64,000 nt of DNA, taken from contig CAVUQO010000003.1 in the NCBI GenBank assembly GCA_963743635.1, forward strand, positions 640,001-704,000. The letters are read 5' to 3'. Below are positions 20,929 through 38,400 of the stretch, in pieces. A program made the translations under genes and the position numbers. Positions within the stretch are counted from its first letter, which is position 1, and every line of letters starts with the position of its first letter. Source of the DNA: Candidatus Babeliales bacterium (lineage in GTDB: Bacteria > Babelota > Babeliae > Babelales > Vermiphilaceae). Below the pieces are notes generated by a model that did not search any database, was not told the origin of the DNA, and saw only the letters and a list, made by a program, of their open reading frames with translations.

Positions 20929-21990
20929 TTACTTATGCATCATGAGATAAGATTCTTTTTGGTGCGTAACCAGTGTGTACTGATTTTGATTCAGAACAAG
21001 TTTCTTAACGTACGCGGGACGAAATCCGAGCGTGTGTGAAATGGTGCTCAGCGGTGCACGCTGCATAGGTTGTGCTTGCAGATATGCAGAAAGCAGTTGG
21101 TTGGCGATGAGCTGTTTGTTGCGCCGATTGGCAAAATAGGATGCGATTAATCCTTTTTCCGGCGCAAAAAGAAGCGCGAGTAAAAAGAGCATGCCCGATG
21201 CGGTGGCAATAGCGCCAGCAATTGAGACGTTCAAAAGATGCGCTAACCAGTAGCCGCCTATTGAAGAGGCGATGCCGAGCGCGATGCTCAGATAGATCAT
21301 GATATTAAGTTTGTGCGTTAGTAGATAGGCAGTTGCAGGCGGTGTAATCATGAGTGCGACAACCACAATCGAGCCGACTACGTTAAAGGCACCAACGGCG
21401 GTGATGCTCGTGAGCGTCATAAGTGCATAGTACATATATGCAGGCGTGAATCCGAGCATGCGCGAAAGTTCTGGATCGAAGGTGGTAAGTTTCAATTCTT
21501 TATAGCAGATAAGCACAAACAAACTATTGAGCAGTGCAATGCTACCCATGCTCCAGAGTGCGCGTGGGCCCCAATCAATGCCAAATAGTTCGAGACGATT
21601 GAAGGGCGCAAATGCCAATTCGCCGAGCAATACCATATCCATATCAAGATGCACGTTGCGTGCATACATGCTAATCAAAATAATGCCGACGGAGAAAAAG
21701 AGCGGGAACACAATCCCAATGGCTGAATCTTTTTTGAGCCGTTTGCTTGCGATAATTCTTTCCGTGATGAGGACTGTTGCAAGGCCCGCAAGTGCAGCGC
21801 CCAGAATTAAAAGAGGTGATTCAAGATTATGCACGAGAAAAAACATGAGCACGATACCAGGCAAAATCGCATGACTAATCGCATCGCTCATGAGAGCAAC
21901 ACCGCGCAATACGAGAAACACACCCGGCAAAACGGTTGCGATGGAAGTCAGGCAGGCAATCGCCATAATAATGATTTGGAAGCTATTCAT
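20929..21990 (-). CDS. Mn/Zn/Fe ABC transporter permease (TroD/MntD-like)
   Basis: DAISHAILPG, LTTFDP, VGSIVVVALMITPPATAYLL (ABC-3 family). Confidence 0.92.
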   Translation of the reverse strand: MNSFQIIIMAIACLTSIATVLPGVFLVLRGVALMSDAISHAILPGIVLMFFLVHNLESPLLILGAALAGLATVLITERIIASKRLKKDSAIGIVFPLFFSVGIILISMYARNVHLDMDMVLLGELAFAPFNRLELFGIDWGPRALWSMGSIALLNSLFVLICYKELKLTTFDPELSRMLGFTPAYMYYALMTLTSITAVGAFNVVGSIVVVALMITPPATAYLLTHKLNIMIYLSIALGIASSIGGYWLAHLLNVSIAGAIATASGMLFLLALLFAPEKGLIASYFANRRNKQLIANQLLSAYLQAQPMQRAPLSTISHTLGFRPAYVKKLVLNQNQYTLVTHQKESYLMMHK

Positions 21991-22838
21991 GATGATACTC
22001 GCGCATGGCGTGGGGTACAGAAAAATGAGATGAGCACGCAGATGCTTAAAATTACCACGATCGTGGGGCCGGTTGGAATATGCGTATACCAGCTACTAAT
22101 GAGTGATCCAAGAAAGCTGCTCAGGGCGCCAATAGTAGATGCGAGAAACACCATTGATGAAAGACGCGTTGTCCATTGATATGCGGCTGCAGCGGGTGCA
22201 ATAAGCATGGCGCTCATGAGTACTACACCAACTGTTTGTAATCCTAATGAGATGGCGAGTACCATTAATACCGTTAAAAATACATCGAGTGCAATCACGG
22301 GATATCCGCAGGTATGTGCGTACGCGTAATCAAACGTGAGTAATGAAAACTCTTTCCAAAAGAGCGCGAGGCAAGAGAGTGTAAGGGTCGCAATGAATGC
22401 CATCGCGTACACATCTTCGATAATGAGCGTCGACGCGCTGCCAAATAAAAATTTGTTTAAGACTGATTGATGCGGAATTGAATATTTTTGAATGACGGTC
22501 ATGAGCACGAGCCCGACGCCAAAAAAGACCGATAAAATAATGCCGAGTACTGTATCTTGTTTGAGTTTCGTGAGTCGTGTGATGACAAGCATGAGAATAG
22601 TGCCGATACATCCGGCAATTGAACCGCCGAGTATGAGAATGAGCGGATTTCGTGAGTGAGTGGCTAAAAACATCAGTGCAATGCCGGGAAGTGCGGCATG
22701 AGAAATAGTATCACCGAGTAAACTTTGTTTGCGCAGTAATGCAAATACGCCTAATGCGCCGGCGGTGATGCCAAGCAGCATTGTCCCGATGCATACAATG
22801 ATGAGCGTGTAATGAGTGCTGAGGAGGGTATAAGTCAT
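21987..22838 (-). CDS. Mn/Zn/Fe ABC transporter permease (TroC/MntC-like)
   Basis: LLRKQSLLGDTISHAALPG, VGVVLMSAMLIAPAAAAYQWT. Confidence 0.92.
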   Translation of the reverse strand: MTYTLLSTHYTLIIVCIGTMLLGITAGALGVFALLRKQSLLGDTISHAALPGIALMFLATHSRNPLILILGGSIAGCIGTILMLVITRLTKLKQDTVLGIILSVFFGVGLVLMTVIQKYSIPHQSVLNKFLFGSASTLIIEDVYAMAFIATLTLSCLALFWKEFSLLTFDYAYAHTCGYPVIALDVFLTVLMVLAISLGLQTVGVVLMSAMLIAPAAAAYQWTTRLSSMVFLASTIGALSSFLGSLISSWYTHIPTGPTIVVILSICVLISFFCTPRHARVSS

Positions 22839-22885
22839 AGGTATAACAAGGGAAGTGAAAGGGCGTATGATACTTTATTCCGTAC

Positions 22886-23129
22886 ACCCATTCGAGACAT
22901 TCTTCGTCCCGTTTCACGAGACTCAGAATCCTCAGGGCGAACGGATTCTACGACATAGCAGGCATTATATGTAAGATAAGTTTCATCGCAAAAATCATTA
23001 TAAAATCGATGATCTACATCCCCCCGTTCGCCCTGAGGGTTTTTCATAAGCGAAGCGAAATGAAAAATGTCTCGAATGGGTGCGGGGATCCATAAATTTG
23101 CGCATCCCTCGACCAGCTCAGGATGAAGG
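22886..23129. repeat. inverted doublet plus one minimal copy of REP-like family A
   Basis: 22886-22944 ACCCATTCG...CTCAGGGCGAACGG; inverted 23024-23081; minimal copy ATCCCTCGACCAGCTCAGGATGAAGG at 23104-23129. Confidence 0.85.
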
Positions 23130-23178
23130 GACAAAAAAGTTTTTTTAAAAAAGAGAAAGGGAATGTTGAAATTATGCT

Positions 23179-23940
23179 TCATAATTCCCGTACCTTATTA
23201 AAACAGTTCGTAAACAAGGTGTGTTTGCCGTACGTAGCATGCAAATTTTCAGCGTGAAGGACTTGATTAATCGGCCCGCATGCGATGAGTTTGATATTTA
23301 AAAGGAGTAGCCAATCAAAATAATCTTGCAGCGTCTGCAAATCATGATGCACCACGATAATGGTTTTACCTTGAGTGCGTAATTTTTTGAGGAGTTCGAC
23401 AATCGTTTGTTCCGTTGCCATATCAACGCCCATGAACGGCTCATCCATGATGTAAATATCTGCTTGTTGCACCAGTGCGCGTGCTAAAAAGACGCGCTGT
23501 TGTTGCCCGCCTGAAAGTTGGCTGATATGCCGGTAGGCATAATGAGTGAGTTGTACTTGTTCAAGCGCAAGCCATGCTGCATCATAATCGGCCGATGAGG
23601 GGCGTTTGAACCATCCCATATGTGCATAACGGCCCATGAGTACAACGTCCAATACGTTGGCAGGAAAATCCCAATCAACGCTTAATCGTTGTGGGACGTA
23701 TGCGATGCGCTGGGTATGTTCTTTATAGCTGCCCCCAAAAAAAGATACTGACCCTGCATCAGGCCTAATAATATTAAGAATAGATTTAATGAACGTGGTT
23801 TTGCCTGCACCATTGGGGCCAACAACGGCAAGTAATGTTCCCTGCGGAATAGATGCGCTGATATCCCAGAGTACTGGCTCGGTTTGATAGCGCACCGTCA
23901 AATGGGAAATGGATAATGCAGCAGTGGTGTCTGATGGCAT
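23179..23940 (-). CDS. Mn/Zn/Fe ABC transporter ATP-binding protein (TroB/MntB-like)
   Basis: Walker A GPNGAGKT, signature LSGGQQQR, Walker B IMDEPF, VHHDL. Confidence 0.95.
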   Translation of the reverse strand: MPSDTTAALSISHLTVRYQTEPVLWDISASIPQGTLLAVVGPNGAGKTTFIKSILNIIRPDAGSVSFFGGSYKEHTQRIAYVPQRLSVDWDFPANVLDVVLMGRYAHMGWFKRPSSADYDAAWLALEQVQLTHYAYRHISQLSGGQQQRVFLARALVQQADIYIMDEPFMGVDMATEQTIVELLKKLRTQGKTIIVVHHDLQTLQDYFDWLLLLNIKLIACGPINQVLHAENLHATYGKHTLFTNCFNKVREL

Positions 23941-24152: not shown

Positions 24153-25892
24153 ATGAAGAAAATGATAACGATTGTGGTGTTGATATTGGGGTTTTTGACG
24201 TGGCGCATGGGGGCTATGGAGGCACAAGCTGAAGCGGAGGCTGGAGATGTAATGCTGCAGACGAATGATGGTCAACTCGTATCTATCAGTAGAAAGGATG
24301 CAAGATGTTTCCCTACGATTATTGATGCAGTAAGCATATTGAGCACAGATGAGCCAATTCCAGTGAATGTTACGCAACCCGTCTTGCAGCGTCTGCTTCA
24401 AGATTTAGATTGGGTCAGAGCAGTATGTAATGAGAGGCGCCCAGATGAAACAGAACAGCAATGTGCAGAACGAGCTGCACGAGCATTACCTCCATCGGCG
24501 TATGTCTATTCTGATAATAGTATGCGCAGAACATTCGAAAATTTAGCAGCAGCCCATTATTTAGGATCATTGGAATTGCAAGAACGATATGCCCGCATCC
24601 TTGCAGGAATGCTCGTATCTGATCAATCATTAGCACTATTATACAGCAACAATCCTGCTCATATTGCATTTATTCAAAAGATTGAGCCACTGCGGGGTGA
24701 TGGTGATCAAAAGGTATATGCAGAAAATCGTAATGCTGGTGCATTTCATATTTTTGCGCGATTGATTTACAAATATATTCCAGAAATTGAGGTATGGGCA
24801 CAGAGTTCCATGCTTCCACATAAAAGAGTGGTTTTAGCCGCATCTTTTTCGCCCGATAGTGCCAAAGTAGCAACTGCGGCTGATGATAATAGTATACGTA
24901 TATGGAATGCAGATCTGGCTACGATGTTGTTCGTATTACGAGGACATTCGGCTGCTATTCATTCAGTATCCTTTTCTCCAGCTGGGGATAAGGTTGTATC
25001 AGCTGCGAGTGATAATTTAGCGAAAATATGGGATGTAAATACGGGGACATTATTGCGTACATTAAAGGGGCATGCTGGTGTGGTTGCATCAGCATCATTT
25101 TCGCCCGATGGTACTCAGGTGGTGACTGCGTCTGACGACGGAACTGTGCGTCTATGGGATGCAAATACGGGTGCATCATTGCGTACGTTGCAGGGGCATC
25201 AGGGACATAGTTATGGTGCTTATGTGATTTTTTCAGCACAATTTTCACCGGATGGTAGTAGGGTGGTGACTGCATCCAGTGATCGAGAGGCAAAGATATG
25301 GGATGCAAATACGGGTGCGTTATTGCGTACGTTACAGGGACATAGGGATTTGGTTAGATCAGCACAATTTTCACCGAACGGTATGAGGGTGGTGACTGCG
25401 TCCGGTGATCGAGAGGCAAAGATATGGAATGCAAATACGGGTGCGTTATTGCATACCTTGAGGGGGCATGTTGCTCAGGTTAGATCAGCATCATTCTCGC
25501 CCGATGGCACTGAGGTGGTGACTGCGTCTGACGACGGAACTGTGCGTCTATGGGATGCAAATAATGGGGCGTTATTGCGTACGTTGGAGGGGCATACCGA
25601 TTGGGTTCTATCCGCATCCTTTTCACCGGATGGCAATAAGGTGGTGACTGCGTCATGTGATAGAACGGCGCGCATATGGAGACCAATTCGGGCGGACAGT
25701 TTTGATCAGGCGTTATTTATTCATATGTTACGATGGGCACAGCGTAATAATAAACCAGTAGGCTGGCAAACAGGATGGGGACGTATGGTAATGGATACGT
25801 ATAATCCCGATGTTGAAGCCATGATCAAAGAGGCATTCCCTAAATCATTGATGGAGAAAATGAACGAAAAAGTGGGCAGATTATTTAGGTAG
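24153..25892 (+). CDS. secreted Skp1-like domain + 7xWD40 repeat protein (copy 1)
   Basis: Signal peptide ending MGA-M; VMLQTNDG...PIPVNV...LAAAHYL; seven GH...SASFSPDG..VVTAS.D....IW repeats. Confidence 0.9.
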   Translation: MKKMITIVVLILGFLTWRMGAMEAQAEAEAGDVMLQTNDGQLVSISRKDARCFPTIIDAVSILSTDEPIPVNVTQPVLQRLLQDLDWVRAVCNERRPDETEQQCAERAARALPPSAYVYSDNSMRRTFENLAAAHYLGSLELQERYARILAGMLVSDQSLALLYSNNPAHIAFIQKIEPLRGDGDQKVYAENRNAGAFHIFARLIYKYIPEIEVWAQSSMLPHKRVVLAASFSPDSAKVATAADDNSIRIWNADLATMLFVLRGHSAAIHSVSFSPAGDKVVSAASDNLAKIWDVNTGTLLRTLKGHAGVVASASFSPDGTQVVTASDDGTVRLWDANTGASLRTLQGHQGHSYGAYVIFSAQFSPDGSRVVTASSDREAKIWDANTGALLRTLQGHRDLVRSAQFSPNGMRVVTASGDREAKIWNANTGALLHTLRGHVAQVRSASFSPDGTEVVTASDDGTVRLWDANNGALLRTLEGHTDWVLSASFSPDGNKVVTASCDRTARIWRPIRADSFDQALFIHMLRWAQRNNKPVGWQTGWGRMVMDTYNPDVEAMIKEAFPKSLMEKMNEKVGRLFR

Positions 25893-25918
25893 TACATATA
25901 TTTTACATCACGAAATTC

Positions 25919-25947
25919 AAAAGGGTCTCTTAATCGGGGCCCTTTTT
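25919..25947. terminator. bidirectional-type intrinsic terminator
   Basis: AAAAGGGTCTCTTAATCGGGGCCCTTTTT; identical copy at 29760-29788. Confidence 0.75.
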
Positions 25948-25948
25948 A

Positions 25949-26003
25949 TTATGATGTTAAAGCGCCAACAATCGCCGCTATATTATGCCGACCATGCCCA
26001 ATA
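25949..26003 (-). repeat. second stranded copy of the 3' end of the ABC substrate-binding gene
   Basis: 39/42 identity to 29790-29831; reads RHNIAAIVGALTS*. Confidence 0.85.
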
Positions 26004-26102
26004 AAATCCTTGCGTCTGAGCTTTTCAATATGCCAATCTGGATAAAAATGCAAGGCGAAAATAGTGATTTTGTCTAAATCATTCCTAAAAGGAGAATGGA
26101 AT

Positions 26103-27956
26103 ATGAAGAAAATGATAATGATTGTGGTATTGGCGTTGGGTTCTTTGACGTGGCGCATGGGGGCTATGGAGGCACAAGCTGAAGCGGAGGCTGGAGATGT
26201 AATGCTGCAGACGAATGATGGTCAACTCGTATCTATCAGTAGAAAGGATGCAAGATGTTTTCCTACGATTATTGATGCAGTAAGCATATTGAGCACAGAT
26301 GAGCCAATTCCAGTGAATGTTATGCAACCCGTCTTGCAGCGTCTGCTTCAAGATTTAGATTGGGTCAGAGCAGTATGTAATGAGAGGCGCCCAGATGAAA
26401 CAGAACAGCAATGTGCAGAACGAGCTGCACGAGCATTACCTCCATCGGCGTATGTCTATTCTGATAATAGTATGCGCATAACATTCGAAAATCTAGCAGC
26501 AGCCCATTATTTAGGATCATTGGAATTGCAAGAACGATATGCCCGCATCCTTGCAGGAATGCTCGTATCTGATCAATCATTAGCACTATTATACAGCAAC
26601 AATCCTGCTCATATTGCATTTATTCAAAAGATTGAGCCACTGCGGGGTGATGGTGATCAAAAGGTATATGCAGAAAATCGTAATGCTGGTCCATTAAATG
26701 TTTTTGCGAAATTAATCTATAAATATTTTTCACACGGAGAAGTATGGGAGCGGCGTGTATTTTTCAGAGCGCATACGAATAAGATTTATTCACTATCATT
26801 TTCATTGGATGGCGCTCGGGTGGTGACTGCATCTGGTGATCGAACGGCAAAGATATGGGATGCAAATAGTGGGGCGTTATTGCATACATTGCAGGGGCCT
26901 CATGGGCATACTGATTTTGTTTATTCAGCATCATTTTCACCGAATGGCGATCGGGTGGTGACTGCATCTCGTGATCGAATGGCAAAGATATGGGATGCAA
27001 ATAGTGGCGCGTTATTGCATACATTGCAGGGGCATACTAATCTGATTGTTTCAGCATCATTTTCACCGGACGGTAGTAGGGTGGTGACTGCGTCCAGTGA
27101 TCGAACAGCAAAGATATGGGATGCAAATAGTGGCGCGTTATTGTGTACCTTGCAGGGACATAGACATGAGGTTCGTCCAGCATCATTTTCATCGGATGGC
27201 ACTCGGGTGGTGACTGCATCTGGTGATCGAACGGCAAAGATATGGGATGCAAATAGTGGGGCGTTATTGCATACATTGCAGGGGCATACTGATTTGGTTT
27301 ATTCAGCATCATTTTCACCGAATGGCGATAGGGTGGTGACTGCATCTGGTGATCGAACGGCAAAGATATGGGATGCAAATAGTGGGGCGTTATTGCATAC
27401 ATTGCAGGGGCCTCAAGGGCATACTGATTTGATTTATTCAGCATCATTTTCACCGAATGGCGATAGGGTGGTGACTGCATCTCGTGATCGAATGGCAAAG
27501 ATATGGGATGCAAATAGTGGGGTGTTAGTGCATACATTGCAGGGGCATACTAATCTGATTGTTTCAGCAACATTTTCACCGGACGGTAGTAGGGTGGTGA
27601 CTGTGTCCAGTGATGGAACGGCACGCATATGGAATGCAAATAGTGGGGAGTTATTGGATACATTGCAGGGGAATGTAGCATCATTTTCACCGGATGGCAC
27701 TCGAGTGGCGACTGCGTCTAATGATGGAATGGTGCGCATATGGAGATCAATTCCGACGGACAGTTTTGATCGGGCATTATTTATTTGTATGTTGCGGTGG
27801 GCACAGCGTAATAATAAGCCAGTGGGCTGGCAAACGGAATGGGGGCGTATGGTAATGGATACGTATAATCCCGATGTTGAAGCCATGATCAAACAGGCAT
27901 TCCCTAAATCGTTGACGGAGAAATTGAAGGAAAAAGTGGGCGAATTATTTAAGTAG
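26103..27956 (+). CDS. secreted Skp1-like domain + 8xWD40 repeat protein (copy 2)
   Basis: ATG 26103 (1950 bp after the copy 1 start); N-terminal ~190 aa almost identical to copy 1; eight WD40 repeats. Confidence 0.9.
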   Translation: MKKMIMIVVLALGSLTWRMGAMEAQAEAEAGDVMLQTNDGQLVSISRKDARCFPTIIDAVSILSTDEPIPVNVMQPVLQRLLQDLDWVRAVCNERRPDETEQQCAERAARALPPSAYVYSDNSMRITFENLAAAHYLGSLELQERYARILAGMLVSDQSLALLYSNNPAHIAFIQKIEPLRGDGDQKVYAENRNAGPLNVFAKLIYKYFSHGEVWERRVFFRAHTNKIYSLSFSLDGARVVTASGDRTAKIWDANSGALLHTLQGPHGHTDFVYSASFSPNGDRVVTASRDRMAKIWDANSGALLHTLQGHTNLIVSASFSPDGSRVVTASSDRTAKIWDANSGALLCTLQGHRHEVRPASFSSDGTRVVTASGDRTAKIWDANSGALLHTLQGHTDLVYSASFSPNGDRVVTASGDRTAKIWDANSGALLHTLQGPQGHTDLIYSASFSPNGDRVVTASRDRMAKIWDANSGVLVHTLQGHTNLIVSATFSPDGSRVVTVSSDGTARIWNANSGELLDTLQGNVASFSPDGTRVATASNDGMVRIWRSIPTDSFDRALFICMLRWAQRNNKPVGWQTEWGRMVMDTYNPDVEAMIKQAFPKSLTEKLKEKVGELFK

Positions 27957-28026
27957 TGCGTATATTTTACATCACGCAATTCAGCATTAATTTAAAATGC
28001 CGGCTGGGATAAAAGGAGAATGGTCC

Positions 28027-29733
28027 ATGAAGAAAATGATAACGATTGCGGTGTTGGCGTTGGGCTCTTTGACGTGGCGCATGGGGGCAATGCAGCAACC
28101 AGCCAAAGCGGCGGTTAGAGAAGTAATACTGCAGACGAATGATGGTCAAGAAGTGAGCATGAGTGAGGCTGATGCAAGACTTTTTGGCACGATTAGAGAT
28201 GTAATAGATGAGTGTGGCAATGAGCAACCAATTCCACTCAGTAATGTTTCACTCGTAGTATTGCGGCGTCTGCTTGCTGATATACCGTGGGCGAGAGAAA
28301 CGCGTATTGGTAGACAAGCGCATGAAACTGAAGAGCAATGTGCAGAGCGAGCTGCAGGAGCATTGCCGGCATCGGGTTATTCTGTTGATGGTCTGCGCCA
28401 AGCAAGGGAAAATTTCGAGGCTGCTCGCTATTTGCTATCGCCTGAATTGATGGAGAGATATGCACGCATTGTTGCGGGTATGTTAGCATCAGATCAATCA
28501 TTAGCATTATTGTATAACAACGATTCTGCATGCATCGCATTGATTAACAATATTGGGGCTGACGATGTTTTTGCGAGATGGATTTGTAAACACCTTCCAC
28601 ATGTATGGGGGCAGCAGCTTGTGCTTCAGGATACAAGTGCGGTTTATTCAGCTTCATTTTCACCGAATGGCAATAGGGTGGTGACTGCATGTGATGAGGG
28701 AACGGCAAAGATATGGGATGTAAATAGGGGGGCGTTATTGCATACATTGCAGGGGCATACTGATGTGGTTAGATCAGCATCATTTTCACCGGATGGAAGT
28801 AGGGTGGTAACTGCGTCCAATGATCAAACGGCAAAGATATGGAATGCAAATAATGGGGCGTTATTGCATACCTTGCAGGCACCTCAGGGGCATGCTTGGC
28901 GGGTTAATTCAGCATCATTTTCACCAGATGGTAGTAGGGTGGTGACTGCGTCCAGTGATCGAACGGCAAAGATATGGGATGCAAATAGTGGAGGGTTATT
29001 GCGTACATTGCAGTGGGCTCAGGGGAATACTAATTGGTATGATAATTCGATTAATTCAGCATCATTTTCATGGGATGGCAATAGGGTGGTGACTGCGTCT
29101 AATGATAGAACGGCAAAGATATGGAATGCAAATAGTGGGGAGGTATTGCGTACATTGCGGGGCCATAACGCTGCGGTTTATTCAGCATCATTTTCACGGG
29201 ATGGCAATAGGGTGGTGACTGCGTCTGTTGATGGAACGGCAAGGATATGGAATGCAAATAATGGGGACTTATTGCATAGATTGGGGGAGGATCCTGAGGG
29301 ACATTTTGGGTGGGTGCCTGTTTATTCAGCATCATTTTCACCGGATGGCACTCGGGTGGTGACTGCGTCTCGTGATCGAATGGCAAAGATATGGAATGCA
29401 AATAGTGGGGATTTATTGGATACATTGCATGGGCATACTGATCTGGTTAGATCAGCATCATTTTCACCGGATGGCACTCGGGTGCTGACTGCATCTTTTG
29501 ATGGAACGGCACGCATATGGCAATCGACTTGGACGGACAATTTTGATCAGGCGTTATTTATTCATATGTTACGATGGGCACAGCGTAATAATAAGCCAGT
29601 AGGCTGGCAAACAGGATGGGGACGTATGGTTATGGATACGTATAATTTTCATGATCAAGAGTTGATCAAACAGGCATTTCCTCAATCATTGATGGAGAAA
29701 TTGAAGGAAAGAGTCGGCAGATTATTTAAGTAG
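28027..29733 (+). CDS. secreted Skp1-like domain + 7xWD40 repeat protein (copy 3)
   Basis: ATG 28027 after AGGAG; EVILQTNDGQEV...GTIRDVIDECGNEQPIPLSNVSLVVLRRLL...FEAARYL; seven WD40 repeats. Confidence 0.9.
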   Translation: MKKMITIAVLALGSLTWRMGAMQQPAKAAVREVILQTNDGQEVSMSEADARLFGTIRDVIDECGNEQPIPLSNVSLVVLRRLLADIPWARETRIGRQAHETEEQCAERAAGALPASGYSVDGLRQARENFEAARYLLSPELMERYARIVAGMLASDQSLALLYNNDSACIALINNIGADDVFARWICKHLPHVWGQQLVLQDTSAVYSASFSPNGNRVVTACDEGTAKIWDVNRGALLHTLQGHTDVVRSASFSPDGSRVVTASNDQTAKIWNANNGALLHTLQAPQGHAWRVNSASFSPDGSRVVTASSDRTAKIWDANSGGLLRTLQWAQGNTNWYDNSINSASFSWDGNRVVTASNDRTAKIWNANSGEVLRTLRGHNAAVYSASFSRDGNRVVTASVDGTARIWNANNGDLLHRLGEDPEGHFGWVPVYSASFSPDGTRVVTASRDRMAKIWNANSGDLLDTLHGHTDLVRSASFSPDGTRVLTASFDGTARIWQSTWTDNFDQALFIHMLRWAQRNNKPVGWQTGWGRMVMDTYNFHDQELIKQAFPQSLMEKLKERVGRLFK

Positions 29734-29759: not shown

Positions 29760-29788
29760 AAAAGGGTCTCTTAATCGGGGCCCTTTTT
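29760..29788. terminator. bidirectional-type terminator between convergent WD40 and ABC substrate-binding genes
   Basis: Same hairpin as 25919-25947 with A and T tails. Confidence 0.75.
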
Positions 29789-29789
29789 G

Positions 29790-30722
29790 TTATGATGCTA
29801 AAGCGCCAATAATCACCGCTATATTATGCCGCACCATTCCAATATAGGTATCAGCACCACTGCCGACTGGGCCGAGGGCATCTGAATAAAGTTGATCGCC
29901 GATCTTAACTTCAAACTCCCGTGCACGAGCTGCTTGCTGGACTGCCTGAATATTGCGTTCAGGAATGGAAGCTTCTACGAATAATGCGCGTACTTTATTG
30001 GTTACGATGAAATCAACGAGTGCTTGCACATCTTTAATGCCGGCTTCAGATTCGGTACTGATGCCTTGTAATGCAACTACTTGAAAGCCATAGGCGCGGC
30101 CAAAATAGTGAAATGCATCATGAGCGGTAACCAGAATGCGTTGTGCTGGTGCAAGGCGGGAAACTTGTTCGTTAATGAAAGCGTCGAGCGCTTCAAGTTC
30201 TTGCGTGTAATCAGCAGCACGCGCTGCATAAGCGTCAGCATGTTCCGGATCATGCTGCATAAGCGCATCACGTATGATAGAAACGGCATCAATCCATATG
30301 CTGACGTCAAACCAGATATGGGGATCATGCATGGTTTCATATTCGGCAGATGCGATAAGGCGTGAGCGGTCAAGATGGTCGGCAATAGAGAGGGTTGGTA
30401 CATAGCGATTCATTGAATGGAGTACGTCTGCCAATTTGCCTTCAAGGTGCAATCCGTTATAGATGATCAGGTTTGCTGATGCGAGCGTTTGAATATCATG
30501 TTCGCGTGCGCGATAAAGATGCGGATCGATATCCGGGCCCATGAGGCTTGTAACGTCTGCGTAATCACCCACCAATTGACGCACGGTATCGCCAATGATG
30601 CTCGTGGTGCAGACAATTGAAAAGCGTGCGGGTTGGGAAACTGGCTGCTGGCGGTTAACCCAATAATAGATGCCCAAACCAAGGGCAAGCAATAGGGCAG
30701 TAATGAGGATCGATTGTTTCAT
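29790..30722 (-). CDS. Mn/Zn ABC transporter substrate-binding protein (TroA/MntA-like)
   Basis: DPHLY, YNGLHLEG, DPHIWFD, HDAFHYFG and LYSDAL metal-ligand motifs. Confidence 0.95.
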   Translation of the reverse strand: MKQSILITALLLALGLGIYYWVNRQQPVSQPARFSIVCTTSIIGDTVRQLVGDYADVTSLMGPDIDPHLYRAREHDIQTLASANLIIYNGLHLEGKLADVLHSMNRYVPTLSIADHLDRSRLIASAEYETMHDPHIWFDVSIWIDAVSIIRDALMQHDPEHADAYAARAADYTQELEALDAFINEQVSRLAPAQRILVTAHDAFHYFGRAYGFQVVALQGISTESEAGIKDVQALVDFIVTNKVRALFVEASIPERNIQAVQQAARAREFEVKIGDQLYSDALGPVGSGADTYIGMVRHNIAVIIGALAS

Positions 30723-31054: not shown

Positions 31055-33319
31055 ATGAAACATACTAAAAAAATTATATCTGTTTTACTGCTTGGTGCAG
31101 TTGTTTGCGCCCCTCAGGCGCAGGCTATGCAGCAAGTGGCGCGTTTTGCGCGCACGGCGGTTAATACTGCCGTTAAGGCAAATAATGCCCTAGTAATTGC
31201 TCAATCAGCCAAATCGGTACTGCCTCATCAGGCGAGCCTGACGTTAAGGCGAGAAGTGGCCACGCGTGTAATTGTGCCATCGATGAGAAATACGATATCA
31301 GTCCCAAAGATAAATAATTATGGCCTGAATTCAGCCATGCATCCAGCTTTAAATGGCAGATCGTTGAGTAGTACAGCTGTGCAACGGGCTGCAATTACTG
31401 CGCAACAGTCGGTCGGTATTCGTGCTATGAGTAATGCTATCAATCATCAATCAATTGATGGATCTCATTCAGTGTTGCCAGAAGATCTTATAAAAGAAAC
31501 AGCTGAAAAGTGGCATTTTATGCTCAGGTGCGAAGAAAGTAAGTTGATGGATATTATAAAAACGTATCCCACAATTAAGGAGCACATTGCTGCCTCTCTG
31601 ACAAAAAATGGTGGTCCAACTAACTTCGATCTAGGGTCTATGTATTCGGAGTATATGAATATAACGTATAAAATGGCCGATATGCTGCTCGAAGACAATA
31701 ATGATAAGATAATGACTCTTTTTGCCGGTATGGTTGAAGATAATATTATAAAATATGTGGAACAAGAAGGAGAAGAGAGTCGTTTCCGTTTTTGTATGCA
31801 TGTAGCCTGGAAGTTGCCGAATTGCCGAGTGCTTGCAAAAAAATTTACTCCTTATGCTGTGGCAAATCTTGGATCTTTGACGCAGTCTAGGAGCGGATCT
31901 TATTTCTTGGACTACGTAATGGAGCACAATCCAGAAGCATCAAAGCAATTTACTCCTCATGCTGTGGCGCATATTGAATGGTTGGTGAAAGATTGGAATG
32001 GAGTGGATTTCTTGGAGTGCTTAATGCGGCACAATCCAGAAGTAGCGTTGAAATTTGCGTCGCGTATTATAGCAAACCCTACAGTATTTGTGGCACGCCA
32101 AGAAGGCATTACATTTGTATCGGCTATAATGCGCAAGCATGAAGCAGCGAGGATATCGTTGATGCAGCAATGCGCTGAAACATTATGGGAACATGCTCCA
32201 GAATTAATTCTGCCCTGGAGGGATACGCCATACGGCAAAGAAGCAATTGCAAAGATAGTGTCGAGGGGCGTACTGGATAAGAAGAAGCCCTACACTTTTT
32301 CAACTATGTTGGTTAAATCAATGGTTTCGAGCAATCCTACACTGACTCAAAAATATTTGGTTATTACCTATAAAGATATGCATTCGGGAAGTAAAACCGA
32401 TTTGAAAGATCCCAAGGTCGTAGATATGGTGGATGAAACGATTGCGATTGAACAATCATGGCTGAAAGATCATTACATCTTTGAGCATGGTAGGCGATGG
32501 ACATATAAATTACCCGAGATGGTTTATCGTCACTTCTATCAGCTTGCAAACAATATAATCCTTCCTGATGATTTTATGTTTACGCATACCAAGCCGCATA
32601 TTTATTCTCACAGGCTTAAGGCTCAAGAATTTGAGCAAGAAAAAGCATTACACACGCAGGTAATCAATGAACGTGAAAATATTCCGGGCGAGGTACGCAA
32701 TAGACGATTGTTCATGAATACCGGCTTATTAGGAAACGTCAATTCAGAAGGAAGCAGCTCGCTCTATTATGTGCTGAAAAATTATAATCAGGCAGATGCG
32801 CGTATTTCGATGAGATCAATCTTCGAGCAGTTCGGGCTGCAAGCGTTATATGAAAAACATAAAGCGCAGTGTGAAGCATTAGAGCAAGAGGCTCAAGCAT
32901 TAAGTAAATGGGGCCAATTATTAGTCATTGGAATACCCAAAGATAAGATAAGCGAATTAGCGACCTATCTTTGTATCAGCGGCCGTCCAAAACCAGCGAT
33001 TAACGTCGGTGGGCAAGAAACCTATGATGCAAAACGCATTCTCGATGCGCGATTGGAAGATCCTGAGTTGGCTAATAACAAAATCAACTGGGTTGCAGCC
33101 ATGACGGACTGTGCGCTCTTAGATCCACGCAGTGGTGTAAAAATAAAAGCAATAGATCGTCCAATAAATCTAGCAGCATTTAAAGCATGGGAAATGAAGT
33201 TCAACGAATTTATGCAATCGATCAGAGCAGAAGCAAAAGAAATAATGGATGCGCATAAAAGAGTAATCGAGAAAAATAGTCAAAATAAATGGGGAAATTG
33301 GAGGTTATGTCATGAATAA
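31055..33319 (+). CDS. secreted hypothetical protein with a basic low-acid N-terminal segment and 35-aa helical repeats
   Basis: 754-aa ORF, signal peptide ending AQA-M; 105-bp internal repeat near 31840-32150. Confidence 0.8.
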   Translation: MKHTKKIISVLLLGAVVCAPQAQAMQQVARFARTAVNTAVKANNALVIAQSAKSVLPHQASLTLRREVATRVIVPSMRNTISVPKINNYGLNSAMHPALNGRSLSSTAVQRAAITAQQSVGIRAMSNAINHQSIDGSHSVLPEDLIKETAEKWHFMLRCEESKLMDIIKTYPTIKEHIAASLTKNGGPTNFDLGSMYSEYMNITYKMADMLLEDNNDKIMTLFAGMVEDNIIKYVEQEGEESRFRFCMHVAWKLPNCRVLAKKFTPYAVANLGSLTQSRSGSYFLDYVMEHNPEASKQFTPHAVAHIEWLVKDWNGVDFLECLMRHNPEVALKFASRIIANPTVFVARQEGITFVSAIMRKHEAARISLMQQCAETLWEHAPELILPWRDTPYGKEAIAKIVSRGVLDKKKPYTFSTMLVKSMVSSNPTLTQKYLVITYKDMHSGSKTDLKDPKVVDMVDETIAIEQSWLKDHYIFEHGRRWTYKLPEMVYRHFYQLANNIILPDDFMFTHTKPHIYSHRLKAQEFEQEKALHTQVINERENIPGEVRNRRLFMNTGLLGNVNSEGSSSLYYVLKNYNQADARISMRSIFEQFGLQALYEKHKAQCEALEQEAQALSKWGQLLVIGIPKDKISELATYLCISGRPKPAINVGGQETYDAKRILDARLEDPELANNKINWVAAMTDCALLDPRSGVKIKAIDRPINLAAFKAWEMKFNEFMQSIRAEAKEIMDAHKRVIEKNSQNKWGNWRLCHE

Positions 33320-33471: not shown

Positions 33472-35316
33472 TTACTTACGCTTTAAGATCGCGAGGAATG
33501 CTTCTTGCGGCACTTCAACGTTACCCACTTGTTTCATGCGCTTTTTACCCTCTTTTTGTTTTTCTAAGAGTTTGCGTTTACGGGAGATATCACCGCCATA
33601 ACATTTTGCGGTTACGTCTTTACGCAATGCAGCAACTGAGCTGCGGGCAATAATTTTTGCGCCAATGGCTGCTTGAATGGCAACTTCGAATAATTGTCGC
33701 GGGATAACTTCTCGCAAGCGTTCCACTAAATCTCGGCCAATATAATATGCCTTATCTTCGTGCACGATGCATGAGAGTGCGTCAACGGCTTTTTTATTGA
33801 GCAAGATATCCATTTTTACTAAATCAGAAGGTTCAAAGCCAGCTTCTTCATAATCGAAGCTTGCGTAGCCCGAACTGCGTGATTTGAGTTCATCATAGAA
33901 ATCGGTTGCCACTTCATTGAGCGGAAGTTTGTATTTTAGAATCACGCGATCTTCATCAATGAACTGCAGATTAATTTGTACGCCGCGTTTCTCTTCGCAG
34001 AGCGTAATCATATTACCCAGATATTCTTTGGGCGTAATGATCGTAGCATTAATAATTGGTTCTTGAATTTCTTCGATGGTGCTTGGATCAGGAAAGTCTG
34101 AAGGACTTTCGATATTAACCACTTCGCCTGAATGTTTCATTTTTACTTTGTAGAGTACGCTTGGTGCGGTTGCAATGATGGTCAGATTATATTCTTGTTC
34201 AAGACGTTGTTTGAATACATCCATATGCAAGAGCCCCAGGAATCCGCAACGAAAACCAAGACCGAGTGCCGGTGAACTTTTCTTTTCAACGGTGACGCTC
34301 GCATCATTAAGCGTTAATTTTTGAATGGCATCAAGGAGCGGATCGAAATCGGTGCTATCAACCGGGAAGATGCCGGCAAATACCATTGGCTTTGCGGGCC
34401 TAAATCCAGGAAAGGGAGTAACCGGTTTTTTGGTGTGGAAAATAGTATCACCAACGCGCGCTTCTTGTACCGTTTTCATACCAGTAATGACGTAACCTAC
34501 TTGGCCTGCATGCAATGCATCCATAGGGGTTAAATCGGGATACATGAGACCAATTTCAAGCACTTCATAGGTATTATCGGTTTGTGCGAGTTTTATTGAG
34601 TCACCTTTTTTGATGGTGCCATTGTGAACCGCAATTAAGCAAATCACGCCGCGATAGTCGTCGAACCATGAATCAAAGAGCAATGCTTTGAGTGGTTCAG
34701 AGATGGAGCCTGTTGGCGCAGGCATGCGGGTAATAATGCCTTCTAAAATATCTTTGATACCGATGCCGGCTTTACCGGAGGCTTTGATGATTTCGTTTTC
34801 TTTGAAATCGAATAATTTTTCAATTTGCAGGGCGATACGTTCTGGCTGCGCATTTGCCATATCAATTTTGTTCATGACCGGAAGAATGGTCAAATCTTGA
34901 TCAAATGCCAGATAAAAGTTTGCCATTGTTTGGGCTTCGACGCCCTGTGCGGCATCTACCAATAAGAGTGCCCCTTGGCAGGCGTAGAGTGAGCGAGAAA
35001 CTTCATAGGTGAAATCCACGTGACCGGGGGTATCGATGAGGTTCAGGAGATATTGGACGCCCTTATATTCATAAAACATTGAGGCGGTTTGGGCTTTAAC
35101 CGTGATGCCTCGCTCTTTTTCCACTTGGAGTTTATCGAGAAACTGTTCATGCTTTACACGGTCCGACAAAGTGCCCGTGAATTCTAAGAGTCGGTCCGCA
35201 AGGGTAGACTTTCCGTGGTCAATGTGAGCAATAATAGAAAAATTACGCACTCGGTCAGGAGTGAAATCCTGCAGCCTAAGCGATTTGAGATCCGTGGACA
35301 TGAGTGTATTTATCAA
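33472..35316 (-). CDS. lepA: elongation factor 4 (LepA)
   Basis: RNFSIIAHIDHGKSTLADR, LIDTPGHVDF, NKID, KCYGGDISRKRKLLEKQKEGKKRMK; start may be 35301. Confidence 0.98.
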   Translation of the reverse strand: MINTLMSTDLKSLRLQDFTPDRVRNFSIIAHIDHGKSTLADRLLEFTGTLSDRVKHEQFLDKLQVEKERGITVKAQTASMFYEYKGVQYLLNLIDTPGHVDFTYEVSRSLYACQGALLLVDAAQGVEAQTMANFYLAFDQDLTILPVMNKIDMANAQPERIALQIEKLFDFKENEIIKASGKAGIGIKDILEGIITRMPAPTGSISEPLKALLFDSWFDDYRGVICLIAVHNGTIKKGDSIKLAQTDNTYEVLEIGLMYPDLTPMDALHAGQVGYVITGMKTVQEARVGDTIFHTKKPVTPFPGFRPAKPMVFAGIFPVDSTDFDPLLDAIQKLTLNDASVTVEKKSSPALGLGFRCGFLGLLHMDVFKQRLEQEYNLTIIATAPSVLYKVKMKHSGEVVNIESPSDFPDPSTIEEIQEPIINATIITPKEYLGNMITLCEEKRGVQINLQFIDEDRVILKYKLPLNEVATDFYDELKSRSSGYASFDYEEAGFEPSDLVKMDILLNKKAVDALSCIVHEDKAYYIGRDLVERLREVIPRQLFEVAIQAAIGAKIIARSSVAALRKDVTAKCYGGDISRKRKLLEKQKEGKKRMKQVGNVEVPQEAFLAILKRK

Positions 35317-35695: not shown

Positions 35696-38400
35696 ATGGA
35701 ACCGGAAAATAAGAGCAAGGTAAATAATCTTCGTATTAAGCCTGTGCTCATTGAGGACGAACTCAAGACGTCATTTTTAGATTATGCCATGTCCGTGGTG
35801 GTAAGTCGTGCGATTCCTGATATTCGTGATGGATTAAAGCCGGTTCATCGCCGCGTACTCTATACGATGTATCAGCTTGGCTTTCACTACAATAAGCCAT
35901 ATCACAAATCGGTACGCGTGGTGGGTGATGTGCTTGGTAAGTATCATCCGCATGGTGATCAAGCGGTGTATAATACCATGGTTGGCATGGTGCAAGATTT
36001 CTCCAAACGCTATCCATTGCTTGATGGACAAGGTAACTGGGGTTCGGTTGACGGGGATAATGCAGCAGCAATGCGTTATACTGAAGTCCGCATGGCAAAA
36101 ATTGCTCAGGAAATATTGGCCGATCTTGATAAAGAAACGGTACGATTTGTTCCTAACTTTGATGAATCAACGGTTGAGCCAATGGTATTGCCAAGCAAAT
36201 TCCAAACTTGCTCGTAAATGGTACCACCGGTATTGCCGTTGGTATGGCAACTTCAATTCCGCCCCACAATTTGGGTGAAGTGATTGATGCATGTCTTGCA
36301 TTACTTGCTAATGAACCAGAACTTTCTGATGAAGAACTGTTTGAAAAAATTCCTGCTCCTGATTTTCCAACCGGCGGTATTATTTGCGGCCGTGCTGGCA
36401 TTGTAAAAGCATATAAAACAGGTCGCGGTAATTTAATTTTGCGTGCTGTGGTTGATATTGAAGAGACCAAAAAAGGCAGTTCGATTATTATCACTGAATT
36501 GCCATATATGGTTAATAAAGCAGCACTTGGCAATCAAGATTGCTGATTTGGTGCGTGATAAAGTGATTGAAGGCATCACCAATATTCGTGATGAATCGGA
36601 TAAAAAAGGTATGCGCTTAGTGATTGAAGTTAAGCGTGGTGAAATGCCGCAAGTAATTCTGAATCAACTGTATAAATATACTCCATTGCAAACATCAGTT
36701 TCTATTTTGATGCTTGGGTTGCTTGATAATAGCCCGCTGGTTTTTTCATTGCGTCAATTGTTGCAATCAATTCTTGTATCACCGCCGCGAAGTTGTTTAT
36801 AAACGCACTGTGTATGATTTGACGCAAAGCGCAAGAGCGCGAGCATATTGCTTGACTGGTTTTATTATTGCGCTTAGATAATATTGATGAAGTGGTTGCG
36901 CTCATCAAGAAATCGCAATCTGCAGAAGAAGCAATTACTAAATTAAATAAACGTTTCTTGCTTTCTGCTGAACAAGGCAAAGCAATTTTGGAAATGCGCT
37001 TGCAACGTTTGACCGGTCTTGAACAAGAAAAAATTCATGCCGAAATGGAAGAAATCAAAAAGACGATCGCGCATCTTAGAAGCAATTCTTGAAAATGAAG
37101 AAATCTTAAAAAAGAAATTCATTACCGAATTGTCGCCATTAAAAGAAGAATATGCCGATACGCGCAAATCGCGCATTGAAGGTGCAATTGATATTTTTAC
37201 TGAAGCTGATTTAATTCCTGATGAAGAAGTGGTGGTAACGCTTGACACGAAAGGCTATATCAAACGCGTATCGCTGGAAACCTATGGCGTGCAGCATCGT
37301 GGTGGCAAAGGTAAGATGGGTATGGCGACACTTGAAGAATCTGATGATATGATTGAAGATCTATTTGTTGCGCAAGAACCATGATGAGCTTCTCTTCTTT
37401 ACCAACTTAGGCCGCGTATATAGCATGCAAGTATTTGAAGTTCCTGAAGTTCACGTATTGCAAAAGGACGCGCAATTGTTAATTTGTTGCCGCTTCAACG
37501 CAGGCGAACATGTGGTTAAATTACTCTGCATGCGTGATTTATTGAAGGCAACTTCTATTGTAATGCTTACCAAAAATGGAATTATCAAACGAACTGATGC
37601 GAAGTGAATTTGCAAATATTCGTTCAACCGGTATTCGTGCATTGACGTTGAGTGAAGGTGATGAATTGGTCATTCTGTGCAATGAGTACTGGTAACGAAT
37701 CGGTTATTATTGCAACGGCACATGGTCAAGGAATTCGCTTTAATGAAACTGAAGTGCGTTCATGGGACGTCAGGCTGCGGGTGTGATTGGTATTCGTTTA
37801 AAAAAGGTGATTATGTGGTCGGCATGGAAGTGATTGCTGATCATGGTGATATTCTCTTTGCAACTGAAAATGGTTATGGCAAACGAGTAAAAATTAAAGA
37901 TTTCCGTGTTGCGCATCGTGGTGGCGTTGGTGTTCGTACTATTCCAACCGATAAACGTAACGGTCAAGTGATTGGGCTTGAGCATGTTACTGATAAATCA
38001 AATGTACTCTTGATTGATCAAGCGGGTAAAATTATTCGTCTTACCACCAACAGAAGTTCGCACCATGGGCCGCCAAGCAAAAGGGGTTCGTTTGATCAGA
38101 CTTGATGAAGGTCAAAAACTGGCTTCAGTGGTTGCATTTGAAGAAGAAGAACATGAAGGTGGATCTGGCTCAGGAAATGGTGAAGGCCATATTTCAGGTG
38201 CGGTGAAATTGAAAACAGAACAATCGATTAGTGACATTTTGCAGTTCGACGATGTACAAGCAGCGGCGGCGAACGACGAGTTCGAAGCATTTACAGAACA
38301 TTTGGAACCAGAGGCTGAAAGCCTTGTAGCAAAGGAAGAGCTGCAACTGGAAGTCCTTCGTGAGCCTCAGGATGAGGGTTCGATGCTCGAAGAGTTCTAA
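35696..38400 (+). CDS. gyrA: DNA gyrase subunit A, split by many apparent indels
   Basis: [22 protein letters not shown] (catalytic Tyr), PAPDFPTGG, GyrA-box QHRGGKG, C-terminal pinwheel repeats and acidic tail over consecutive ORFs. Confidence 0.95.

Follow-up and report, generated by a model that had tools for sequence, protein, structure and literature searches.

Which role do presumably exported bacterial proteins play that join a Skp1-like head to a WD40 propeller? The question is raised by three tandem genes in a 64,000-nucleotide stretch of DNA (hereafter the window) from Candidatus Babeliales bacterium (GenBank assembly GCA_963743635.1, contig CAVUQO010000003.1, positions 640,001–704,000, forward strand). 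The genes form an array of constant domain order; their cores are homologous to Skp1 and lack the Skp1 tail, the top face of their propellers is variable, and the family is spread across the phylum Babelota. Our analysis suggested that the products, made by an intracellular parasite of protists, are probably exported and that each of them, as one chain, probably brings substrates to the Cul1-Rbx1 ubiquitin ligase of the host.

The three genes all lie on the plus strand and are intact: copy 1 (24153–25892) encodes 579 residues, copy 2 (26103–27956) 617 residues and copy 3 (28027–29733), the copy used for modelling and docking, 568 residues. For copies 2 and 3, the starts were moved downstream from the listed open reading frame (ORF) starts at 26064 and 27997, because a ribosome-binding site of the AAAGGA(G) type precedes the later ATG. 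In each protein, a signal-like leader is followed by one Skp1-derived core of ∼120 residues, a helical linker and a WD40 propeller, and the chain ends in a helical tail; the fusion of a Skp1-like head to a propeller, as claimed in a preliminary description of this DNA, is borne out by the ORFs. The leader of copy 1 (24153–24215, residues 1–21) was assigned from the sequence and a heuristic, with cleavage presumably before Met22. The core occupies 24249–24614 (residues 33–154) in copy 1, 26199–26564 in copy 2 and 28123–28485 in copy 3, ending where the F-box-binding helices of Skp1 would start. The helical tail, ∼65 residues in copy 3 (29530–29730), is common to the three copies; in the copy 3 model, the confidence drops there from ∼85 to below 50. 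Contigs from four of four public peat and soil short-read runs match the array stretch, mostly at 99% or more and with no indels; none covers the entire array. These contigs bridge the core-to-propeller joints and lend no support to an assembly artefact as the source of the array. Eukaryotic contamination was also rejected, given the bacterial ribosome-binding sites, the lack of introns, the 818-kb contig and a contamination value of 1.27%.

The N-terminal domain of copy 3, which contains verbatim both peptides quoted in the preliminary description, matches Skp1_POZ (PF03931) with 28.9 bits (cut-off 21.9, E = 1.3e-6); neither copy 1 nor copy 3 matches the BTB family PF00651. Searched alone, the N-domain of copy 1 gave no Pfam match, and it is linked to Skp1 through the family profile only. 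Among 20 paralogous N-domains, Skp1_POZ was found in 8 and BTB in 3 at E ≤ 1. The profile built from these 20 domains aligns with residues 3–127 of human Skp1 at E = 4–5e-8, compared to E ≥ 0.03 for Elongin C. With 77 sequences of the clade, comparison to 29 eukaryotic Skp1 sequences gave an hhalign probability of 99.5 (E = 2e-22, 121 columns), and a 23-sequence profile of the phylum matched Skp1 at E = 1e-16 to 3e-29 and Elongin C at ∼1e-9, with no match to BTB-Kelch proteins at E ≤ 0.01. The AlphaFold model of the copy 3 N-domain has a pLDDT (predicted local distance difference test) value of 88.8; its Foldseek matches are SCF (Skp1-Cul1-F-box) and Skp1 complexes, and its best VIA-align match is Skp1 in 1ldk_D (Z 10.8, root-mean-square deviation 3.6, 114 residues aligned). 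In a single-sequence PDB search with copy 3, at least 25 of 28 rows were named Skp1, none of them significant (best E = 0.05); when the N-domain was looked up in the Atlas, no score exceeded 0.80, which is a lead only. Profiles and models (Skp1_POZ, Foldseek and VIA-align) thus uphold the Skp1/BTB fold proposed earlier for this domain, and both sequence and fold favour a core of Skp1 type, not an ordinary BTB domain.

The copy 3 domain was docked onto an N-terminal fragment of Cul1. This cullin, of fungal type and encoded on a metagenome contig, is a stand-in for that of the host; it matches Cul1 at E = 3.5e-74 versus 1.9e-28 for Cul3. In this docking, of the kind called for in the preliminary description and here with Cul1, the predicted complex of copy 3 scored 0.73 and has SCF geometry, whereas the best of three controls scored 0.17; in calibration, 116 of 157 solved complexes came up to the score mark, compared to 2 of 215 mismatched pairs. 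The docking runs share at least 81% of the contacts, and the pLDDT of the partner is at least 80. On the Cul1 side, the predicted contacts are made by two tyrosine-rich helices, presumably H2 and H5. On the copy 3 side, they involve strand B3 (QPIPLSN, 28225–28245), the equivalent of the PxPN Cul1-contact motif of Skp1, the helix before it, positions 108–111, and two residues that start the F-box-like last linker helix before the propeller (28558–28599). Positions 108–111 are the RYLL segment (28426–28437), aligned to Asn108-Tyr109-Leu110-Asp111 of Skp1, and its tyrosine makes the best-ranked predicted contacts. Structures of the textbook pair Skp1-Cul1 have been solved, and the cullin used here is a stand-in, so that the docking speaks for likeness and compatibility rather than binding; at that level, the model supports a core surface compatible with Cul1.

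Different from Skp1 itself, the proteins lack the part that grips the F-box. The profile matches to Skp1 stop before helices a7/a8, which form its F-box-binding surface (Stogios 2005, PMC1257465). The Skp1 tail family PF01466 was found in 0 of 20 paralogues, in 0 of 30 phylum ORFs examined and in 0 of 261 phylum genomes, in a scan with no positive control of its own, although the family does match eukaryotic Skp1. As the tail is absent, these proteins are not Skp1 family members, and they probably do not act as decoys for the F-box proteins of the host. Three helices stand in its place. In the family profile, the last of them lines up with F-box helix 1 (probability 26, E = 7e-4; 0 of 100 column shuffles scored as high), nearly equal to the control of F-box against Skp1 (15.8 for the linker helix versus 14.5); only this first one of the three F-box helices aligns, and in copy 3 the register, suggestive at best, is degenerate. 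Pfam F-box was found in 1 of 41 linker segments, at E = 0.19. A position-specific test showed no excess over the upstream control (p = 0.44, 101 rows, of which ∼10 with misplaced motif anchors were kept in), and the window copies had negative scores. These two results do not support the presence of a complete F-box behind the core. We take the chances that the linker helix is an F-box relic to be roughly even. F-box-like proteins occur in 22 of 121 sampled phylum genomes; the leader-bearing true F-box proteins of these 22 (L154-L183) are not found in G000, the genome of the window, which carries the Skp1 fusions.

The propeller of copy 1 (24792–25682, limits approximate) contains 7 WD40 repeats according to Pfam, that of copy 2 contains 8 and that of copy 3 (28603–29529) contains 7; the copy 3 model has seven blades, in agreement with the 7-8-blade propeller claimed earlier. 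Positions R1, R1-2 and D-1 are the hotspots of the WD40 top face (Wu 2012, PMC3419727). When the 29 blade positions are ordered by entropy, these take ranks 4, 1 and 3 in the 21 blades of the window; in another subfamily, from which 64 blades were used, their ranks are 1, 3 and 2. Most of the strand positions hardly vary. Copies 1 and 2 share 98.9% DNA identity in their cores and 71% in their propellers, whereas copies 2 and 3 share 82% in their propellers and 67% in their cores; about 150 nucleotides upstream of copy 2 are a duplicate of copy 1 sequence. By these identities, the copies are mosaics.

Such variation bears on the best-surviving alternative, in which the proteins act as a cullin sponge. 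They would bind Cul1, block the assembly of host SCF and protect host substrates, and the propeller would serve localisation and not the selection of a target. This alternative needs nothing beyond the predicted Cul1 binding, and sequestration of Cul3 has been proposed for vaccinia A55 (PMC6484134). However, one sponge would be enough, yet among the 24 related ORFs found in the genome by iterated search about 21 carry a core plus a propeller with a variable binding face, and copies 1 and 2 put different propellers behind the same core. We therefore hold a sponge to be unlikely.

Within the family, several genome copies are split by a frameshift or stop, being either pseudogenes or sequencing errors (G000 C3:751807, C3:1311, C3:779252 and C2:1-200). 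Two ORFs, G000 C3:504788-508096 (1102 residues) and C2:264272-264937 (221 residues, with leader), contain the second half of the N-domain only; in the 221-residue ORF, it is joined to the helical tail with no propeller.

The surface by which the core would touch Cul1 is partly kept. Asn108, Tyr109 and Asp111, the numbering of which was checked on a human Skp1 alignment, are residues that we take, after Zheng 2002, to be Cul1 contacts of Skp1. In the 77-sequence clade, Tyr or Phe is found at position 109 in 84%, whereas Asn108 persists in 4% of the sequences and Asp111 in 14%; among the three window copies, one has Arg and two have His at 108, and one has Leu and two have Gly at 111. The PxPN strand is also a Cul1 contact (Stogios 2005, PMC1257465); its first proline is kept in 65% of the clade, its second proline and asparagine in 22% each, and in copies 1 and 2 the strand is one residue shorter. 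Of the Cul1 surface claimed previously, Tyr109 and the first proline thus stand, and Asn108 and Asp111 do not.

These replacements weigh against the proteins being Cul1 receptors, and so do the following points. The complex prediction may reflect memory of solved SCF structures, and it concerns copy 3 alone with a fungal-type metagenome cullin rather than the Cul1 of the host. The BTB/3-box matches of the fold are not far below those of Skp1 (SPOP, Z 8.4, 121 residues aligned in VIA-align). The ratio of nonsynonymous to synonymous substitution rates (dN/dS) between the cores of copies 1 and 3 is ∼0.47, which is moderate constraint. The blades are not independent of each other, and loops vary in any propeller. 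At least three genome copies are frameshifted. A Sec leader by itself reaches the periplasm only. Finally, the three window copies have no CaaX end, and two of the four family copies with such an end are near-twins.

The same losses could be explained by a vestigial scaffold: the ancestors bound Cul1, and the diverged core is now a folding stalk for a propeller that itself binds or inhibits host proteins. In line with it, conservation of Asn108, Asp111 and PxPN was lost in this clade, whereas the phylum-wide cores are more canonical (N-Y/F/W-L at Skp1 positions 108–110 in 16 of 23, N-Y-L for short), and in a few relatives in the genome the second half of the domain is all that is left. Position 109 and the first proline are nevertheless kept in the proportions given above, and the copy 3 model still docks, at 0.73 compared to 0.17 for the best control. 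A scaffold without cullin binding is, like the sponge, an explanation that we doubt.

A third alternative is that another cullin, Cul3 or Cul2/5, is recruited, at least by some paralogues. The helices after the core align with the 3-box of SPOP and KLHL proteins; for residues up to 175 of the copy 3 model, the alignments to these regions have Z values of 7–8.4, a range in which helical likeness is common. Three paralogues have weak, sub-threshold Pfam BTB matches (E = 0.003–0.013) together with a phi-x-E-like loop (motif from PMC6484134), the rest of the domain being like that of the Skp1-type siblings. For the window copies, however, both sequence and fold favour Skp1, and BTB was found in 6 of the 261 genomes versus 46 of 261 for Skp1_POZ, so that we regard this alternative as quite improbable. 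The A2-B3 loop resembling the Cul3-binding phi-x-E loop is seen in G000 at C2:111104-112951, C2:1852-3777 and C3:1311-2162 (also C2:113104-114927). By these sequences, one and the same family may have switched between cullins.

A partner of any of these kinds would have to be reached by export. The leader was found in 20 of 21 family ORFs and in 30 of 30 phylum ORFs, compared to 1 of 29 eukaryotic Skp1 proteins, using our own heuristic and not SignalP. The genome is 1.45 Mb in size, encodes four ATP/ADP translocases and two secretins (gspD), and has a leader by this heuristic in 354 of 870 long ORFs; such a profile agrees with that described for Babelota (PMC4776705, PMC6561590). No cullin was found in the 261 genomes, in a scan with no positive control; therefore, any partner would be that of the host. 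CaaX-like ends are present in 4 of 21 family ORFs versus 7 among 849 ORFs from outside the family (p = 7e-5). In the library, 8 of the top 75 matches end with Cys at position −4. Outside the family, such ends mark candidate host-prenylated effectors at G000 C1:27437, C2:148043, C3:132897, C3:370570 and C3:392561. It is very improbable that the proteins remain confined to the periplasm, the cell surface or the vacuole, without ever encountering a cullin: a Sec leader, carried by many ORFs of this genome, does not alone cross the outer membrane, but the CaaX-like family ends imply exposure to host cytosolic prenyltransferases, and Chromulinavorax is described as living in the host cytoplasm and shedding vesicles (PMC6561590). 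In Babela, one F-box protein, one RING protein and ubiquitin hydrolases have been reported (Pagnier 2015, PMC4378268); in the main text of that report, 'BTB' is absent and 'Skp' occurs only in a reference.

The family is not confined to the window. A survey of the phylum, of the kind suggested in the preliminary description, detected Skp1_POZ in 46 of 261 phylum genomes and in 9 of 21 families, compared to 0 of 14 controls; it is also absent from 5 unrelated genomes, which are too few for a claim of phylum restriction. The window profile matches 4 of 40 relatives. In a library, profile search returned 209 representatives at E ≤ 1e-3; among the best 150 of these, inspected by eye, leader-bearing fusions are mostly on top and eukaryotic Skp1 proteins below. 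The search for longer proteins gave 15 matches: 8 named proteins from eukaryotes, in which the Skp1 tail is complete, and 7 unnamed fusions. A homologue search with one phylum member gave 0 of 521 candidates. In 29 loci listed from other genomes, the cores lead into WD40, leucine-rich repeat (LRR), ankyrin or unidentified domains, and some ORFs have two or three cores in tandem. Tandem two- or three-core arrays before a propeller are found in L041 (G039:C1:972500-986000), P0050, P0062, P0124 and P0143; multi-core proteins of this kind could bind more than one cullin. In an unrooted, quick-search tree of 132 columns, 35 eukaryotic and 61 bacterial cores separate with a support of 97 (Shimodaira-Hasegawa-like approximate likelihood ratio test); 59 of its 93 inner branches are open, and neither the donor nor the number of origins can be read from it.

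The array is located on the opposite strand to an apparent Mn/Zn ATP-binding cassette transporter operon (20929–23940 and 29790–30722, minus strand, assigned by eye), between its substrate-binding gene and its ATPase and permease genes, and seems to split it. Terminator-like hairpins were seen by eye, without folding, 3′ of copy 1 (25919–25947, plus strand) and, also by eye, between copy 3 and the convergent gene (29760–29788, no strand assigned); none was seen by such reading in the 70-nucleotide gap between copies 2 and 3, and Rfam gave no match within the window. One 754-residue, leader-bearing ORF (31055–33319, plus strand) adjoins the array and has no Pfam match. Further downstream are a lepA-like gene (33472–35316, minus strand), for which one relative of 72% identity is labelled Pseudomonadota compared to 53–60% for the other 79 loci listed, and a fragmented gyrA-like gene (35696–38400), the short ORFs of which lie in different frames.

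Single-chain cullin adaptors are known already, namely BTB-Kelch proteins, chlamydial BTB-LRR proteins and mimivirus BTB-WD40 proteins. Like SCF, in which Skp1 pairs with F-box/WD40 proteins such as Fbw7, beta-TrCP and Cdc4, the proteins described here have the fold and sequence of a Skp1 core, a Cul1 interface predicted at the same site and a WD40 top-face receptor. Different from SCF, they consist of one chain instead of two, lack a7/a8, retain no more of an F-box than its first helix, would be exported by a bacterium and exist as many paralogues. Like the BTB-BACK-Kelch/Cul3 adaptors (KLHL11, KEAP1 and SPOP; vaccinia A55), they would combine cullin binding and substrate recognition in one chain; unlike them, they have a head of Skp1 type, no N-terminal dimerisation extension in the model, Cul1 as the predicted partner, and WD40 instead of Kelch repeats. 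BTB-Kelch proteins have been described as single-chain analogues of Skp1/beta-TrCP, in a design special to Cul3 (Canning 2013, PMC3597819). The BTB-LRR proteins of Protochlamydia PEX1 also form a tandem, expanded family with a BTB-fold head and repeats (Domman 2014, PMC4209131; Stogios 2005, PMC1257465), come from an amoeba-associated intracellular bacterium and are proposed to hijack ubiquitin ligases (PMC4209131). They are described as BTB proteins with LRR, type III-secreted and the only bacterial case; our comparison is by description only. The Mimiviridae BTB/POZ-WD proteins (for example R739 and R786) make up most of the viral structures that match the model of full-length copy 3, and share the domain order and protist hosts; they are viral, annotated as BTB, 8–24% identical, and set apart by annotation. 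Bacterial F-box effectors, namely Legionella AnkB, which has a CaaX anchor, and the F-box proteins of Babela and Neochlamydia, likewise redirect SCF through a repeat domain; they need host Skp1, whereas the Skp1-headed proteins would replace it. We found no description of a Skp1-based, Cul1-directed single-chain adaptor in the literature searched, that on Dependentiae/Babelota included, where supplementary annotation tables could list Skp1 hits; for one library protein, the source itself already gives Skp1 as the label.

Taken as one-chain Cul1 receptors, the proteins would act as follows. The leader would route them through Sec, and type II secretion or vesicles may carry them to the host cytosol. 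There, the modelled Skp1 core is predicted to dock on Cul1 helices H2 and H5 as host Skp1 does. The linker helices, seen in the sequence in place of the missing F-box-grip helices, would hold the propeller; host Skp1 and the host F-box protein would therefore both be unnecessary. The variable top face of the propeller probably picks the target, which would be ubiquitylated and degraded, and duplication plus segment exchange between copies may create new specificities. For Babelota as a whole, we would propose, with less assurance than for the array and just short of calling it probable, a platform in which a collapsed Skp1-F-box chain binds host Cul1 directly and carries swappable WD40, LRR or ankyrin receptors whose binding faces vary; at times prenylation would fix it to membranes of the host, and some paralogues would have changed to a Cul3-type loop.

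So far, Skp1 has been described as an almost stand-alone adaptor (PMC1257465), and BTB-fold domains in bacteria as confined to Parachlamydiaceae as of 2014 (PMC4209131). If our reading is true, both statements would have to be revised in view of a Skp1-headed family that 46 of 261 genomes of a parasite phylum contain, and so would that of a design special to Cul3. Part of the large uncharacterised secretome of these bacteria would receive its first concrete mechanism. Bypassing Skp1 would free the effector from host controls on Skp1 or from competition among F-box proteins. For the design of protein degraders, a recruiter of Cul1 that occurs in nature as one chain and has a propeller with a variable face would be of interest. 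The proteins may then turn out to be, a prospect that we rate as serious but not yet as the likelier outcome, the first natural single-chain Cul1 adaptors and a phylum-wide toolkit for the programmed degradation of host proteins.

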